Under the pieces are notes generated by a model. That model searched no databases. It was not told the origin of the DNA and was given only the letters and a program-made list of their open reading frames with translations. From a virus (taxonomy: Duplodnaviria; Heunggongvirae; Uroviricota; Caudoviricetes), in IMG/VR virus record IMGVR_UViG_3300005688_000042: 45,332 nucleotides of DNA. The stretch is one strand, 5' to 3'. Positions 14,625 to 35,359 of the stretch are shown one piece after another (position 1 is the first letter of the stretch; each line of letters opens with the position of its first letter). Position numbers and translations under genes: made by a program.

Positions 14625-15029
14625 CAAATTCAATCGGTTATGATATCGCAACCTGAACCGATCCTGAACGACCTGTTCAGGATTTTCTGGGCATAGTCAA
14701 CCGTGACAGCTCCTATTATAGCTGATCGAACCTGAACAGATGCTGAATGATTCTACCTTTTTATAAAGATTTAAAAGAATTTACAATCTGGTGAGGGTTC
14801 AGCATGGCAGCCTGAAGCTGAATAAAAAATTAACGGCATCGTAAATAAGTGAAAAAACGCTTGACGGATATAACATTATAAGGTAAAATGGGTGCGTGGT
14901 CGGGGAGATAGTTCTCCGGTTTGGCCAATGTTGCGAAAAAACAACAGTGTGGTAGAAATACAACAAAAATAGTTCTTGCGTTGTTTTAAAACTGATGTAG
15001 AATACAATACATACACAGGGAGACAAGAA

Positions 15030-15386
15030 ATGAATGCACAACATCTCTTCAACATGAACGCCTTGGAAGAACTGCGTAATGATTATACCAAGCCCATGAC
15101 TCGTGAAGAATTCATTGCATATTGGCTCAACTGCGGCGATGATCCTTATGATATGCCCGCTCTGGAATCCTGCATCGAAGGTATCGGTGAAGGCATCAGC
15201 GAGTTTGGTAGTGAGTGTGCTCTATTCGGTGACGCTGGTCCCGGTTCTCTCTATCGCATTCAACGTAAAATCGAACGCATTCAGGGTGTTGTCCGTCGTT
15301 TGAATGAATTTGGTTGTAATGTTACGATGCCTCAGTTTCGTATCCCGATGCTTGGCGCTCACGCTGCATACGATGATCGTTATTGA
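15030..15386 (+). CDS. hypothetical protein
   Basis: Start moved to MNAQHL; GGGAG RBS. Confidence 0.7.
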   Translation: MNAQHLFNMNALEELRNDYTKPMTREEFIAYWLNCGDDPYDMPALESCIEGIGEGISEFGSECALFGDAGPGSLYRIQRKIERIQGVVRRLNEFGCNVTMPQFRIPMLGAHAAYDDRY

Positions 15387-15440
15387 TTCAGCAACCGTTC
15401 AGCTAATTGTGTTATCATAGCATCAAATCAAGGAATCGGC

Positions 15441-15854
15441 ATGAATCTTCAAATCTCCCCCAACGCAAAGCATTATGGAATCGTCAATGATGGTGATGAA
15501 AATGATCATCTTGTCAAGCGGATTAGTGTTCACAGTTTTGCTCAAATGAAACTGATTCAGGCGTGTAATGATGGTTGGTTTGATGTATCATTGGTGGCAA
15601 TCAAAGATACAAACAATATTGATGCACGTTTTACCAAGAAGAAGGAAATTTTGAAATTCCTGACGTACACGAAAGGGGTGTATGATGATGCTTTTGCCCC
15701 CATTGTCCCACAACCGTTGACCGCGGTCCAATGGTTTGAGCGCGCCCGTGATACACTGCGCCAGCGTTTGAATGAAGAAGAGGACACGGAATTGATGGAT
15801 ATTTTCGATGATATCTGCAATGGTCTTGATGTTCTAGATGGTAAAGTAGTGTGA
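15441..15854 (+). CDS. hypothetical protein
   Basis: Box promoter and AAGGA RBS. Confidence 0.75.
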   Translation: MNLQISPNAKHYGIVNDGDENDHLVKRISVHSFAQMKLIQACNDGWFDVSLVAIKDTNNIDARFTKKKEILKFLTYTKGVYDDAFAPIVPQPLTAVQWFERARDTLRQRLNEEEDTELMDIFDDICNGLDVLDGKVV

Positions 15855-15920
15855 GGATCGATTCAGCTACTGTTCAGGTAACTGGTGTATAATCATTCAT
15901 ACCAACCAAGGACAAACGCG

Positions 15921-16445
15921 ATGACCATCGAATCTGATCTGCGCGCTGCTTTCAATCGTCACATGGACAATGCTTGCCGTCTTTACCCCGCATTCACTGC
16001 AAACCGTCATCGCGTGGTGTTTGAGATTGTGCCAAACATGGGTGGGATCGCCGGTCAAGCACGTGGCTGTTTGCATATCAAGGTGAATCTTACCCTTGCG
16101 CGTCAAAATCCTGACTACATCTGTAACAATACCATCCCCCATGAAATCGCGCATATCATCTGTGCACACTTCGGTTGGGATCGTGGCCATGGCAAGAATT
16201 GGAAACGTGTAGCGGTGTCGCTCGGTTGCACTGGTGAACGATGCTTCAATGCTGCTGAAACTGGTATGACTCCGGTTAAGCTTCGCCAGCGAAATCGCTA
16301 TGAATATGTTGCAAGTTGTGGTACAGTTGTCTGGCTGAGTGATGTGATGCACAATAAGGTGACGAATGGTCAGCAACGTATCCTCGCCAGCACCAAGGGT
16401 CGCATTTCCAAGCATCATTTCACTGGCAAGAGTAAGGTGGCATAA
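15921..16445 (+). CDS. SprT-like zinc metalloprotease
   Basis: 'IPHEIAH..C' HExxH, 'GHGKNWK', C-terminal 'YVASCG'. Confidence 0.85.
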   Translation: MTIESDLRAAFNRHMDNACRLYPAFTANRHRVVFEIVPNMGGIAGQARGCLHIKVNLTLARQNPDYICNNTIPHEIAHIICAHFGWDRGHGKNWKRVAVSLGCTGERCFNAAETGMTPVKLRQRNRYEYVASCGTVVWLSDVMHNKVTNGQQRILASTKGRISKHHFTGKSKVA

Positions 16446-16492
16446 ATAGTTGTTGCAAGCCACTATAGCATCTGCTATAGTGGCTACACACT

Positions 16493-16593
16493 GGGAGAGT
16501 GGCCAAGCGGTAAGGCAGCAGACTTTTTTAACACTTTTTCGAGAGTATTAAAAAATCTGTTCATCGTGGGTTCGAATCCCACCTCTCCCACCA
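16493..16593 (+). tRNA. tRNA-Lys(UUU)-like gene with a 26-nt hairpin inserted in the anticodon loop
   Basis: Intact acceptor (GGGAGAG/CTCTCCC), D- and T-arms, A73, CCA; stem GCAGA/TCTGT encloses 33 nt instead of 7. Confidence 0.8.
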
Positions 16594-16615
16594 TATAACA
16601 TAATAGGATACCATC

Positions 16616-16873
16616 ATGCGCAAACAAGTCTGGTATTTCAAATTCACCCCTACTATTATCGGTCCAGTCATTCACAATGTAAAATGGGCTGGGCGCATGT
16701 ATGATCCCACAAACTTGCCAGATTATGTGCGTGAAGCGCTTGGAATGGGTACGCGCGAGTCTGGTCGTCGAAGGTTGTTTCAGGGTATGGCAATCATAGA
16801 TTGTGAACGCGAATTTAATGAAAGGTTTCCGTATTATTGGCGATGGAATCGCATAGAAATCATTCCTAGTTAA
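16616..16873 (+). CDS. hypothetical protein
   Basis: 85-aa ORF, AGGA RBS. Confidence 0.6.
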   Translation: MRKQVWYFKFTPTIIGPVIHNVKWAGRMYDPTNLPDYVREALGMGTRESGRRRLFQGMAIIDCEREFNERFPYYWRWNRIEIIPS

Positions 16874-16925
16874 GCTACCATTCAGATTATGATGGTATAA
16901 TTGATCCCTCAACAAGGGGACCAAG

Positions 16926-17051
16926 ATGATGACCATCGAATGTACCGATTTTGAAGAATTCCTGAATACAATCAAAGGGTTAGTGATTCGCGGCTTGACA
17001 TTCTCCGCGAATACGAATACAATGAAGATCACACTCACTGGAGGCTACTAA
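16926..17051 (+). CDS. small hypothetical protein
   Basis: Manually read 41-aa ORF MMTIECTDFEEF... behind a box promoter and AAGGGG RBS. Confidence 0.6.
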   Translation: MMTIECTDFEEFLNTIKGLVIRGLTFSANTNTMKITLTGGY

Positions 17052-33401: not shown

Positions 33402-33435
33402 TATAATATCAACCATACCAACAAGGAACAAGTCC

Positions 33436-33750
33436 ATGAAAATCGTCCCGATTCCGCCACGTGCTCCGAACAGCAAGCCCAATGCAACATTCGTCAAACT
33501 TCTGAAAGAAGGATTGGACAAGCTCTGGAACGGACGATCTGGCCAAAAATCCAAGGGTTATAAAAAATTCATTTGTAATACATTCTTTGCAAGGAGCGGA
33601 TGCGGATCACTGGAACTGTTAATTGCAGAACGTCTAGGTGATCACGACACGTTTCAGGATTGGGCAGGGAAGCAAGGACGATTCACCATGATCGAGATTC
33701 AAGATGGCCGTAGACGTTGGATGCTGGACATGATCGAAGAATTCAGCTAA
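33436..33750 (+). CDS. hypothetical protein
   Basis: Start MKIVPI after a CATACCAACAAGGA leader. Confidence 0.65.
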   Translation: MKIVPIPPRAPNSKPNATFVKLLKEGLDKLWNGRSGQKSKGYKKFICNTFFARSGCGSLELLIAERLGDHDTFQDWAGKQGRFTMIEIQDGRRRWMLDMIEEFS

Positions 33751-33791
33751 CGTTCAGGTCGGTGGTGTATGATACATATGTATTCAACATC

Positions 33792-33820
33792 GAAAGAGCC
33801 CTTCAGGGCTCTTTCTTTTT
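33792..33820. terminator. intrinsic terminator
   Basis: GAAAGAGCCC-TTCA-GGGCTCTTTC followed by a T-run. Confidence 0.9.
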
Positions 33821-34024
33821 GTGCCACCACTATCCCCGACCACGCACCCATTTTACTATACCATACCTGAACAGAACCTGAACGATAAGTCATTGATTCT
33901 GTTACAAATAAATGCTTGACAGCGCTATGGGCAAACATTTTGTGAGATGATCGAAATGGTCTATGAGTTGTATTCAGCAACCGTTCAGGTTCATGGCGTA
34001 TAATACAACCCATACCAACGGAGA

Positions 34025-34411
34025 ATGACCATGATCGCTAACAGTCTGGACGTGACTCTCACATGCGAAGGCGTTACCAACATTCTGCGCAATGAGTTCC
34101 CCAATTTCCTGATCGATATCAGCATCGTGAACATCCTCGGGGAGCTTCCCCGTATCATGATCGCGAATGTGCCATCCAAAAAAGATGCGCCATATGGTAT
34201 TCTGGAAAATTGCAGCATCTATTTGAAAGGTCTGATCCAGACTGATCATCGTGGGAAGGCGTACATGGAGAATGGTTTTTATTGTCGTCATATCAAGTTC
34301 CGCAAGATCAGCGGCAAGGATGAAATCGAAGTATTGACCAAGTTTTGCAATTGGATGGTCAAGAACCGTGATATGATTCTGGCTATCGAACCGCGTTTCA
34401 ACAATCAATAA
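34025..34411 (+). CDS. hypothetical protein
   Basis: Box promoter, GGAG RBS. Confidence 0.7.
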   Translation: MTMIANSLDVTLTCEGVTNILRNEFPNFLIDISIVNILGELPRIMIANVPSKKDAPYGILENCSIYLKGLIQTDHRGKAYMENGFYCRHIKFRKISGKDEIEVLTKFCNWMVKNRDMILAIEPRFNNQ

Positions 34412-34421
34412 AGGATAGTAT

Positions 34422-34622
34422 ATGTCTAACCCAAGGGGTTTGTGGAAAACTACCATCGTTGTCTGGTCAGACTTTGACCCCCGTTCAATGGAAAGCTCTG
34501 AATTGGTTCGCGACGGCGAGACTGGTGACAGTTTCATCGATGAGTCCAGCACTGATTTCATCACTGATAAATCCAAGTGGCCCGATACTGATTTTTTTGG
34601 TGATGATGGCGTGCTAGAGTAA
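34422..34622 (+). CDS. hypothetical protein
   Basis: 66-aa ORF, AAGGA RBS. Confidence 0.65.
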   Translation: MSNPRGLWKTTIVVWSDFDPRSMESSELVRDGETGDSFIDESSTDFITDKSKWPDTDFFGDDGVLE

Positions 34623-34802
34623 TTCAGCAACCGTTCAGGTTCATGGCGTATAATACAATCCATACCAACGGAGAATGACCATGATCGCACTTCAGTATCG
34701 CGAAGATTATGCAACGCAGACTCGTGGCGACAATGATTCGGAATATGAAATCTATCGCGCCAATGCGGAAGCGTTGGGGTGGAAGGTGAAGAGCTATGAG
34801 GA

Positions 34803-35063
34803 ATGGCTGAACTCTTAAAGGATCAGGCAGAGTCCTTTGAGACGCTGGTGCAAGATCTGACCGATTGGCTGAATGATGGTGAAAAGATTAGTGAATGGGA
34901 TATTAACATGAGCAATCGAAAGATAGCCGCAAAGCGCATCAAGGAACGTTATGGTCCGTTCGATCTACTGGACGATGATGATTCCGAATATTACGAGGAA
35001 CTAGTGCAGAGTCTAACTGAGTGGCTGGACGATGGGGGAGACCTATACGACTGGCAACCGTGA
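34803..35063 (+). CDS. acidic hypothetical protein with internal repeat (LVQDLTDWLNDG / LVQSLTEWLDDG)
   Basis: GAGGA RBS. Confidence 0.65.
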   Translation: MAELLKDQAESFETLVQDLTDWLNDGEKISEWDINMSNRKIAAKRIKERYGPFDLLDDDDSEYYEELVQSLTEWLDDGGDLYDWQP

Positions 35064-35359
35064 TGCGCCCCGAAAGGGGCAACTACCATCATCCCCGACC
35101 ACGCACCCATTTTATATTACATATCATGAACGAACACTGAATGAAGCGTACCAAAACAATTTGATACGATTACGATTACTGAAATGAACGAACCCTGAAT
35201 GACCTTCAGGGTTCTTCTTTACTTCTGAATTGAATTATATTAAAATGGGCGCGTGGTCGGAGATAGTACATCAGGTCCAACTGATGAAGTTATAGAAACC
35301 ATTCAGATTCCGTTCAGGTTTGTCCTGTATACTACTCGCATACCAACAAGGAACACGCC

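Follow-up and report, generated by a model that had tools for sequence, protein, structure and literature searches.

A G-rich start-site box in repeated promoters that probably serve as portable cassettes at gene-module borders of a giant T4-like phage

Promoter-early stem-loop (PeSL) cassettes have been described in the T4-type phages RB49/phi1, T4/PST and KVP40/nt-1, where they lie directly upstream of a Shine-Dalgarno (SD) sequence and start codon and point in the same direction as the genes, and promoter-middle stem-loop (PmSL) cassettes are known from Vibrio phage nt-1 (PMC2839356, PMC4122927). Repeated promoter-terminator cassettes of this kind have been proposed as a gene-shuffling engine of T4-type phages (PMC2839356, PMC4122927). 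A further trait of PeSL cassettes is that mini-circles arise when copies recombine with each other. The window analysed here, a stretch of 45,332 nt, belongs to a giant T4-like phage whose genome encodes a Gp23-type major capsid protein (PF07068, E = 2.7e-91), and it carries thirteen copies of a promoter unit at the borders of small early gene modules. As with the PeSLs, a strong sigma-70-type promoter and a stem-loop terminator recur in many copies, the -35 and -10 hexamers are 17 nt apart (in all 7 plus-strand copies of the window), and the copies are concentrated among small non-essential genes, at breakpoints of insertion, deletion or replacement between relatives. We consider it somewhat better than even (probability about 0.55) that the thirteen units belong with the PeSL/PmSL type, as portable promoter cassettes that mark boundaries and are transcribed by the sigma-70 RNA polymerase of the host. 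Two of their features, an invariant G-rich start box and antisense copies facing terminators, are undescribed for PeSL and PmSL cassettes.

The motif, TAAAAT-GGGTGCGTGGTCGG, is present in 11 near-exact and 2 diverged copies, 7 on the plus and 6 on the minus strand, which bears out the number and strands given in a preliminary description of this DNA; the coordinates given for the copies there are shifted by 1. The 28-nt string proposed in that description occurs as written a single time at up to 3 mismatches, but its 13-nt core does recur: TAAAATGGGTGCG with up to 2 mismatches has 11 matches against 1.26 expected, and none of 100 shuffles reached 11. Ten of these matches are true motif copies, while that at 27409-27421(-) lacks the remaining box; the eleventh near-exact copy, at 17387(-), bears the variant box GGGATGGAGGTCGG. 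Near-exact copies start at 14884, 21558, 25304, 27737, 28992 and 35241 on the plus strand and at 17387, 23102, 26302, 33855 and 35114 on the minus strand, for which the start is the first base and thus the higher coordinate. The copies at 22226(-) and 32817(+) have a diverged box, TAAAAT-ATGGTGGCGGTTGGG. At least 4 further copies of the G-box motif lie beyond the window in the same genome, in which all G-box copies are confined to one 50-kb high-GC island. The copies of the window fall into two classes by their upstream half:

14884..14911, plus strand: class I G-box promoter, sense; -35 TTGACG at 14861-14866, -10 TAAAAT, then GGGTGCGTGGTCGG and a purine tail
17360..17387, minus strand: class II G-box promoter, antisense; variant GGGATGGAGGTCGG; TTCA/GTTCAG at 17399-17414; faces hairpin 17336-17353
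21558..21585, plus strand: class I G-box promoter, sense; -35 ATGACA at 21535-21540
22199..22226, minus strand: diverged G-box copy TAAAAT-ATGGTGGCGGTTGGGG, antisense, without TTCAG box; faces bidirectional terminator 22132-22156
23075..23102, minus strand: class II G-box promoter, antisense; boxes at 23114-23129; faces terminator hairpin at about 23042-23067
25304..25331, plus strand: class I G-box promoter, sense; -35 TGTACA at 25281-25286
26275..26302, minus strand: class II G-box promoter, antisense; boxes at 26314-26329; faces hairpin at about 26237-26263
27686..27764, plus strand: full class I cassette; stem-loop 27686-27710, -35 TTTACA at 27714-27719, -10 and G-box at 27737-27764
28941..29019, plus strand: full class I cassette; stem-loop 28941-28965, -35 TTTACA at 28969-28974, -10 and G-box at 28992-29019
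32794..32844, plus strand: diverged class I copy, sense; TTGACG-17-TAAAAT, then ATGGTGGCGGTTGGG
33828..33855, minus strand: class II G-box promoter, antisense; boxes at 33867-33882; faces plus-strand terminator 33792-33815
35087..35114, minus strand: class II G-box promoter, antisense; boxes at 35126-35141; back to back with the plus copy at 35241
35241..35268, plus strand: class I G-box promoter, sense; -35 TTTACT at 35218-35223; stem-loop immediately upstream

One core is thus joined to either of two upstream halves. In class I, a sigma-70 -35 box lies exactly 17 nt upstream and the promoter is in sense to the genes, whereas in class II the -35 box is replaced by TTCA-N6-GTTCAG and the copies of the window are antisense. 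The -35-like hexamer reported at exactly 17 nt was recovered for 7/7 plus copies, and the TTCAG boxes reported ahead of 5/6 minus copies were confirmed as TTCA-N6-GTTCAG; the fixed -35 spacing and the assignment of TAAAAT as the -10 hexamer are both supported. Conservation was quantified across 76 distinct copies, pooled from the present genome, from two viral contigs and from metagenome contigs. The exact 20-mer was found in 52/76, and the variants retain TAAAAT, GGG, GGTYGG and the purine tail. Of the 76 copies, 30 have the -35 hexamer at a distance of exactly 17 nt, 37 have TTCA-N6-GTTCAG followed by N11, and 41 have TGn; the tail contains GGAG or GGA in 33/76, so that neither is a fixed part of it. 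The G-box never occurs without the -10 hexamer and is as strongly conserved as it. Among TTCAG-type promoters, TAAAAT was found only where the G-box is also present, and many sense TTCAG promoters have TATAAT-like hexamers and an SD leader instead of TAAAAT and the box. Predicted terminator-like stem-loops adjoin the -35 hexamer on its upstream side at 27686-27710 and 28941-28965, and the same stem-loop consensus recurs across class I copies. Rfam covariance models gave no match on any copy, either at the gathering threshold or at E up to 5.

On this anatomy, the core would span about -20 to +13. It would begin with TATGN, the end of the spacer, which supplies a TGn extended -10 in roughly half of the copies. 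TAAAAT and the GGG discriminator would come next, followed by the G/C-rich box of the initial transcribed region, which closes with GGTCGG and some 5 purines. The class I half would provide a -35 hexamer at 17 nt, often with a stem-loop before it, and the class II half two TTCAG-type boxes one helical turn apart, whose reader is probably a putative phage activator. The contacts known for the host polymerase account for TGn, for the -10 hexamer and for GGG; they do not account for why GGTCGG, at about +3 to +8, is invariant. What reads the box may be polymerase kinetics or a lineage-specific factor.

The minus copies of the window face GC-rich hairpins 14-24 nt away that are the terminators of the preceding plus-strand genes, as the preliminary description had proposed. 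In the pooled class II set, a strong hairpin lies within 45 nt in 21/37 copies (median distance 19 nt); in 18 of these 21 an A-run turns the hairpin into a terminator for the sense strand, and 14 of the 21 carry, in addition, a T-rich tail in the direction of the copy itself. Many antisense RNAs could be long instead of short, since no more than about two thirds of the hairpins have a U-rich tail in the antisense direction. Every gene that lies between copies is on the plus strand. The absence of an ORF from the minus units was likewise upheld, as there is no conserved minus-strand ORF and the plus frame is better conserved in every overlapping plus/minus pair. The distance from a sense copy to the gene is 60-140 nt, and another promoter intervenes. 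The idea that the copies bracket gene modules is supported, and the bracketed modules carry anti-defence-type domains (ArdC-like, RadC-like JAB, SprT-like and cREC receiver), so the cassettes may be an exchange and expression platform for counter-defence genes.

Under the cassette model, the units would mark where small early gene modules meet; several of these modules have anti-defence-type domains. Sense copies would act as outer promoters upstream of the gene-proximal promoter, and antisense copies, just behind the terminator of the preceding module, would fire into it. We infer from this convergent layout that antisense copy and terminator together insulate the modules; the antisense copies would yield short non-coding RNAs of about 45-60 nt or send polymerases head-on into read-through transcription. 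The cassettes would further serve as conserved joints for module exchange between related phages, as proposed for PeSL and PmSL cassettes.

Comparison with relatives bears on this last role. Two related viral contigs and several metagenome contigs carry an exact box, and the motif downstream of the -10 hexamer is conserved in relatives with flanks only 65-90% identical and, in a diverged form, in cultured phages; the preliminary description is thus not refuted on the point that it had itself named, conservation in relatives. Similarity from copy to copy extends 30-80 nt upstream but ends 8-11 nt past the box. At 23102, the promoter side is orthologous to the relative G001 and the terminator/cargo side is unrelated, the break coinciding with the box edge. 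Module order differs among three genomes, across which gene orientation is nearly always the same. Four functions had been put forward for the units (sponge RNAs, polymerase-trapping promoters, R-loop primers and module-shuffling sites), and only the last has direct evidence, in that cargo differs at the box edge and modules are reordered; the other three are conjectural. Relatives also contain four independent 'empty' convergent pairs, only 89-100 nt apart, at which no target-site duplication was found. Close pairs always join two different box variants, which suggests that perfect inverted repeats are avoided.

The cultured phages XacN1, Xoo-sp13 and RAS14 have a sister motif, TAAAAT-GGATGGCAGGCCGGG, placed in the same two ways. 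XacN1 has 12 unique copies, 7 of them antisense and facing terminators and 5 sense and followed by a second promoter, and the -35/-10 spacing is 17 nt in all 17 copies of the three phages. The box core differs by lineage, GGTCGG here versus GGCCGG in XacN1, at an unchanged position. When the window's ORFs between positions 13.5 and 36.5 kb were compared with 47 kb of the XacN1 terminal repeat, the sole match was a SprT-like protein; the box is kept even though just one gene in the compared parts of the region is detectably common to these phages. The layout is open to experiment in the cultured phages, by mapping start sites, assaying read-through of terminators and mutating the box. It is conceivable, though we would not bet on it, that XacN1-like jumbo phages keep a dedicated class of antisense promoters aimed at terminators, in which the invariant box itself does a separate job, as a shared 5' tag of multicopy short regulatory RNAs or as an R-loop/G4-prone site that insulates anti-defence modules and makes their borders exchange hot spots.

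Several rival explanations were considered. The box could be bound as an operator by a lineage-specific DNA-binding regulator that the phage encodes, or serve a polymerase-loading factor, so that sense and antisense G-box promoters would be switched together, e.g. in early shut-off or in antitermination via the facing hairpins. This explanation is compatible with the cassette reading and differs in the job given to the box. A box conserved to the degree of the -10 hexamer, spanning about -6 to +13, a usual place of action for repressors and loading factors, and common to two otherwise different promoter classes, would fit it, as would the change from GGTCGG to GGCCGG at a kept position, expected of a co-evolving site and factor. 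However, the box is not palindromic and the roughly 36 window ORFs scanned against Pfam contained no candidate regulator, and we regard an operator as possible but unlikely. More doubtful is that the antisense copies are genes of multicopy short trans-acting RNAs. Each RNA would begin with a common G-rich sequence (GUGGUCGG and purines), continue through an A-rich stretch and finish in a terminator hairpin, and would act as a seed for C-rich targets or as a sponge of a host RNA-binding protein. Their layout resembles that of Hfq-type sRNA genes in its promoter, lack of an ORF, conserved single-stranded 5' end, A-run and hairpin, with a U-rich tail in 14/21 hairpin-adjacent class II copies, and the placement is kept in cultured relatives. 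Yet a start about 7 nt past the -10 hexamer would leave only about 8-13 nt of the box in the RNA, mRNAs from the sense copies would share the identical 5' end, one third of the hairpins have no U tail in the antisense direction, and GGAG or GGA is not a constant part of the tail. Neither a complementary target in the phage outside the cassettes nor special pairing with the GOLLD/hammerhead region was found.

The G-rich non-template strand might instead form R-loops or G-quadruplexes and act like the promoter-dependent origins of T4, driving exchange at the borders. T4 oriF(uvsY) and oriG(34) are middle-mode promoters whose RNA stays hybridised and which coincide with recombination hot spots; the present units would share with them an activator-dependent promoter, a transcript that could stay hybridised and a link to recombination hot spots. 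The start site has a strong G over C skew, GG-N1-3-GG-N1-2-GG-N2-GG fits all non-A variants and the XacN1-type boxes, and cargo breakpoints lie at the box edge. But there is no clean second GG tract in variant A, the most frequent one (68% of copies), 33 sites in the genome match the G4Hunter score of the box (about 1.5), no AT-rich unwinding element follows the promoter, at least 15 origins in 50 kb are implausible, and antisense copies run directly into terminators, many after about 20 nt, so that we hold this origin model improbable. Plus/minus pairs flanking modules, and the empty convergent pairs, could also recall terminal inverted repeats of transposons or MITEs, or sites of an invertase or shufflon-type recombinase. 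That account is largely refuted by the missing target-site duplications, the absence of a recombinase among the scanned island ORFs, the single orientation of almost all genes in three genomes and the mixed variants of close pairs; moreover, the repeat does not mark the end of an element, since conservation extends outward from it into two different promoter halves, whose spacing is fixed. Least credible of all is that the 27-nt unit is a promoter of a phage-encoded RNA polymerase of T7 type (about 18 nt, then GGGAGA). Its length and G-rich start do resemble single-subunit polymerase promoters, but TGn and TAAAAT, combined either with activator boxes at -30 or with a -35 hexamer placed exactly 17 nt upstream, are in keeping with sigma-70, and a search of the genome, run without a positive control, gave no match to a T7-type polymerase.

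Set beside known systems, the class II copies share with PmSL cassettes a repeated unit with a stem-loop, and with these and the T4 MotA-dependent middle promoters an activator box centred near -30, which takes the place of the -35 hexamer and precedes a sigma-70 -10 hexamer by about 11-12 nt. They differ in having TTCA-N6-GTTCAG, two repeats one helical turn apart, rather than the TGCTT Mot box, and all G-box copies of the window with activator boxes are antisense; MotA and AsiA domains (PF09158, PF09010) had no match in the genome. Coliphage 186 uses convergent-promoter interference between pR and pL as a switch, once, at its lysis-lysogeny decision. Our units share with it, and with bidirectional terminators between convergent transcription units, face-to-face promoters tens to hundreds of nt apart and a common hairpin terminator, whereas here a dozen repeats stand at module borders of a virulent phage and interference would be their predicted effect. 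The class I anatomy (stem-loop, TTTACW, 17 nt, -10) is that of the PeSLs, from which the present cassettes depart in the 14-nt invariant G-rich box and purine tail after the -10 hexamer, in the lack of a terminal SD and start codon, a second promoter separating cassette from gene, and in the aim of nearly half of them (6/13, without ORF) against the genes and into a terminator. The PeSL model therefore leaves two features of this phage to be accounted for: a start-site box as strict as the -10 hexamer, and a systematic antisense copy aimed at the preceding terminator.

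The preliminary description had counted 13 units of a promoter with a G-rich short transcript between 14885 and 35267, seven on the plus strand and six on the minus strand. The 28-nt string used there occurred only once in the window at ≤3 mismatches. The 13-nt core TAAAATGGGTGCG gave 11 matches at ≤2 mismatches, compared with 1.26 expected from shuffles, none of which reached 11. Ten of the 11 matches were copies of the motif, while that at 27409-27421 (minus strand) lacked the remainder of the box; an eleventh copy, at 17387 on the minus strand, carried the variant box GGGATGGAGGTCGG. 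Together with two diverged copies, the count of 13 and its division between the strands proved right, with coordinates off by one base. The starts of the copies (the higher coordinate on the minus strand) were as follows.

14884, 21558, 25304, 27737, 28992 and 35241, plus strand: near-exact copies, flanks read
17387, 23102, 26302, 33855 and 35114, minus strand: near-exact copies, flanks read
22226, minus strand: copy with diverged box, TAAAAT-ATGGTGGCGGTTGGG
32817, plus strand: copy with diverged box, TAAAAT-ATGGTGGCGGTTGGG

These results confirm the first observation and partly support the interpretation that came with it; the G-rich box after the -10 hexamer TAAAAT (hereafter G-box) is real and conserved.

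The anatomy of the unit was determined from 76 distinct copies pooled from this genome, two related viral contigs (G001 and G002) and several metagenome contigs. The exact 20-mer TAAAATGGGTGCGTGGTCGG was present in 52 of them, and every variant kept TAAAAT, GGG, a 5-nt variable centre, GGTYGG and about five purines, with the information content of GGG and GGTCGG equal to that of the -10 hexamer. Conserved sequence (TATGN) started about 8 nt before the hexamer, and a TGn extended -10 was found in 41 of the 76 copies. Two classes were distinguished by what lies further upstream. In class I copies (n = 30) the spacing to an upstream TTGACN or TTTACW hexamer was exactly 17 nt, and a stem-loop of inverted TTCAG motifs usually stood before this hexamer; class II copies (n = 37) had cATTCAG-N5-GTTCAG followed by 11 nt. 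The -35-like hexamer claimed 17 nt upstream of the plus-strand copies was borne out by a consensus scan, which independently listed six of the seven, all those within its range, as sigma-70-like with 17-nt spacers. The G-box was in no case found without the hexamer, and among the many TTCAG-type promoters of the region TAAAAT occurred solely together with the G-box. Sense TTCAG promoters before genes had TATAAT-like hexamers and a short Shine-Dalgarno (SD) leader, not TAAAAT. Several other repeated elements were observed in the same region: a stereotyped sense promoter upstream of most genes, with a short leader ending CAAC-GGAG-ATG; a near-palindromic repeat, which may be an operator, located within hairpins resembling terminators and about 30 nt past some of the class I copies; and a motif repeated downstream of promoters in this genome and G002, including after one sense class II G-box copy.

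Window 15387, 15862, 19620, 19924, 24244, 24613, 24916, 29503, 33973, 34623 and others, plus strand: sense promoters TTCAGCAACCGTTCAG-N11-TATAAT-like
Window 14930-14945, 20803-20834, 21604-21619 and 31995-32030: near-palindromic repeat GTTGCGAAAAAACAAC / GTGGTAAAAATACAAC(AC), also present in relatives
Whole phage genome 121.3, 122.2 and 258.8 kb, and compared stretch L030: motif (G)TAAGTSMTTGATTTATAAGG

Where long ORFs overlapped on both strands, relatives conserved the plus frame clearly better (76% vs 52% and 83% vs 55%, for example), and the genes of 14-36 kb are therefore placed on the plus strand. With the genes so oriented, every class I copy in the window was sense and every class II copy antisense; outside it, class II also includes a few sense copies. 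A second promoter, TTCAG-type or sigma-70-type, lay between the sense copies and the first gene, making the sense copies outer promoters. Antisense copies stood 14-24 nt from strong GC hairpins, which an A-run precedes when read in the antisense direction, so that these hairpins are intrinsic terminators of the plus-strand genes. Among the 37 pooled class II copies, a hairpin of this kind was found in 21; of these, 18 had a sense-strand T-run and 14 also a T-rich tail in their own direction. Were transcription to begin about 7 nt past the hexamer, about two thirds of the hairpin-facing copies would plausibly yield RNAs of 45-60 nt.

The phage genome containing the window is 306,759 bp and encodes a T4-type major capsid protein. 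At least four further copies lay 7-16 kb beyond the window start, and all G-box copies fell inside one 50-kb island of 40-48% G+C, compared with 31-36% in the rest of the genome.

Window 1-36000, corresponding to 69-122 kb of the whole genome: high-GC island with tRNA clusters, all G-box copies and all TTCAG-type promoters

Two RNA matches were also observed, namely a 98-nt Rfam tRNA match (58.5 bits; window 16493-16590, plus strand) not called by ARAGORN, and a full-length GOLLD RNA match (198 bits; window 7791-8238, minus strand) within a tRNA cluster.

Most small ORFs other than the following four had no Pfam family.

15885-16445: SprT-like protein
18616-18927: cREC receiver domain
23353-24243: ArdC-like N-terminal domain with zincin peptidase
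32823-33401: RadC-like JAB protein

Based on this set, the modules look like early, counter-defence-type cargo. Such a set among orphan small ORFs is reminiscent of the anti-defence cargo carried by the leading regions of plasmids.

G001 (315 kb, complete) and G002 (130 kb) carried 15 copies each, in DNA with merely 65-90% identity to the window. Similarity from copy to copy extended 30-80 nt upstream and ended 8-11 nt past GGTCGG, even at orthologous sites. At site 23102, the promoter side was orthologous in G001 on into the ArdC-like gene, while the terminator and genes on the other side were unrelated, with the break at the box tail. The order of gene families differed between the three genomes; for example, the genes on either side of the 33855 cassette had changed places in G001, and one gene bounded by cassettes occupied different positions in the window and G002. 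A small gene at window 29677-29922 (plus strand) was inverted and relocated in G001 (117.2-117.4 kb, minus strand), where it immediately follows a class I G-box copy and is antisense in orientation. Relatives also contained four independent 'empty' convergent pairs, 89-100 nt apart.

G001 (stretch L043, 15619-15708), G002 (stretches L044 and L045) and stretch L218: 'empty' convergent G-box pairs enclosing GC-rich DNA but no gene

Two of these pairs were homologous between G001 and G002. Each joined the common box variant to a different one (about p = 0.01 under random pairing), and perfect inverted repeats between paired boxes therefore seem to be avoided. The same observation argues against selection for pairing, and a 5' G-box / 3' C-box duplex forming an mRNA panhandle or stem-loop was rejected.

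Judged by the capsid protein (62-64% identity), the closest phages in culture were Xanthomonas phages XacN1 and Xoo-sp13 and Stenotrophomonas phages RAS14 and CM1. The exact window motif was absent from them, and a sister motif, TAAAAT-GGATGGCAGGCCGGG, was found in XacN1 (12 unique copies, all inside the 66-kb terminal repeat), Xoo-sp13 (4) and RAS14 (3), each copy preceded at about 17 nt by a TTGACA-like hexamer. According to the XacN1 annotation, seven copies were antisense, just past a gene 3' end and facing an A-run and GC hairpin; the other five were sense, with a second promoter 50-70 nt further on. When the window ORFs of 13.5-36.5 kb were compared with 47 kb of the XacN1 terminal repeat, only the SprT-like protein matched (33% identity), and its gene lay in a module between convergent copies in both phages. 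The promoter layout thus outlasted near-complete turnover of the flanked genes, which argues that it is functional. The 50-kb island may be a counterpart of the XacN1 terminal repeat, an early take-over region. The XacN1 paper mentions neither the promoters nor the sister motif, and the motif string had no occurrence in the searchable literature. Cultured phages now make the roles of the G-box and the antisense copies accessible to experiment.

A near-identity search of GenBank phages with the region gave no match. Scans of prokaryote genomes for the 16-nt box yielded scattered single matches in high-GC genomes, taken as chance, and a degenerate scan of viral contigs gave single chance matches apart from the two relatives. 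Transposon ends, invertase sites and a known RNA family were examined as identities of the units and rejected. A coding reading was rejected as well, the ATG in TAAAATGGG starting no consistent ORF, and so was a tRNA relic: the T-arm-like sequence beside one relative's copy had no ARAGORN or Rfam tRNA call, and the likeness was not general. Duplex energies with the phage GOLLD or hammerhead RNAs were no better than background, which dismissed a guide-target link. A phage polymerase promoter was likewise rejected, with no T7-type polymerase found in the genome by a search that had no positive control. Sigma-70 contacts account for TGn, TAAAAT and the GGG discriminator, but not for GGTCGG at about +3 to +8. 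For this part, the remaining options are an effect on polymerase kinetics via a G/C-rich early hybrid, a site bound by a lineage-specific factor, a 5' RNA tag, and an R-loop- or G4-prone site. A pattern of four GG tracts separated by loops of 1-3 nt is matched by all non-A variants and by the XacN1-type boxes, but not by the commonest variant. A G-quadruplex was rejected as a standout signal, the G4Hunter score being ordinary for this genome.

Class II copies resemble middle-mode promoters in their geometry, though their sequence differs; no domain of the T4 middle-promoter factors MotA and AsiA was found in the genome. The closest described systems are the promoter-early and promoter-middle stem-loop cassettes (PeSL and PmSL) of T4-type phages, repeated units of terminator and promoter in hyperplastic regions that mark gene exchange and have been proposed to mediate it. 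Class I copies match their anatomy. Unlike PeSL and PmSL, the window units have an invariant G-rich box after the -10, lack an adjoining SD sequence and start codon, and include antisense, terminator-facing copies. On these grounds we interpret the units as boundary promoter cassettes related to PeSL and PmSL and forming a variant of them.
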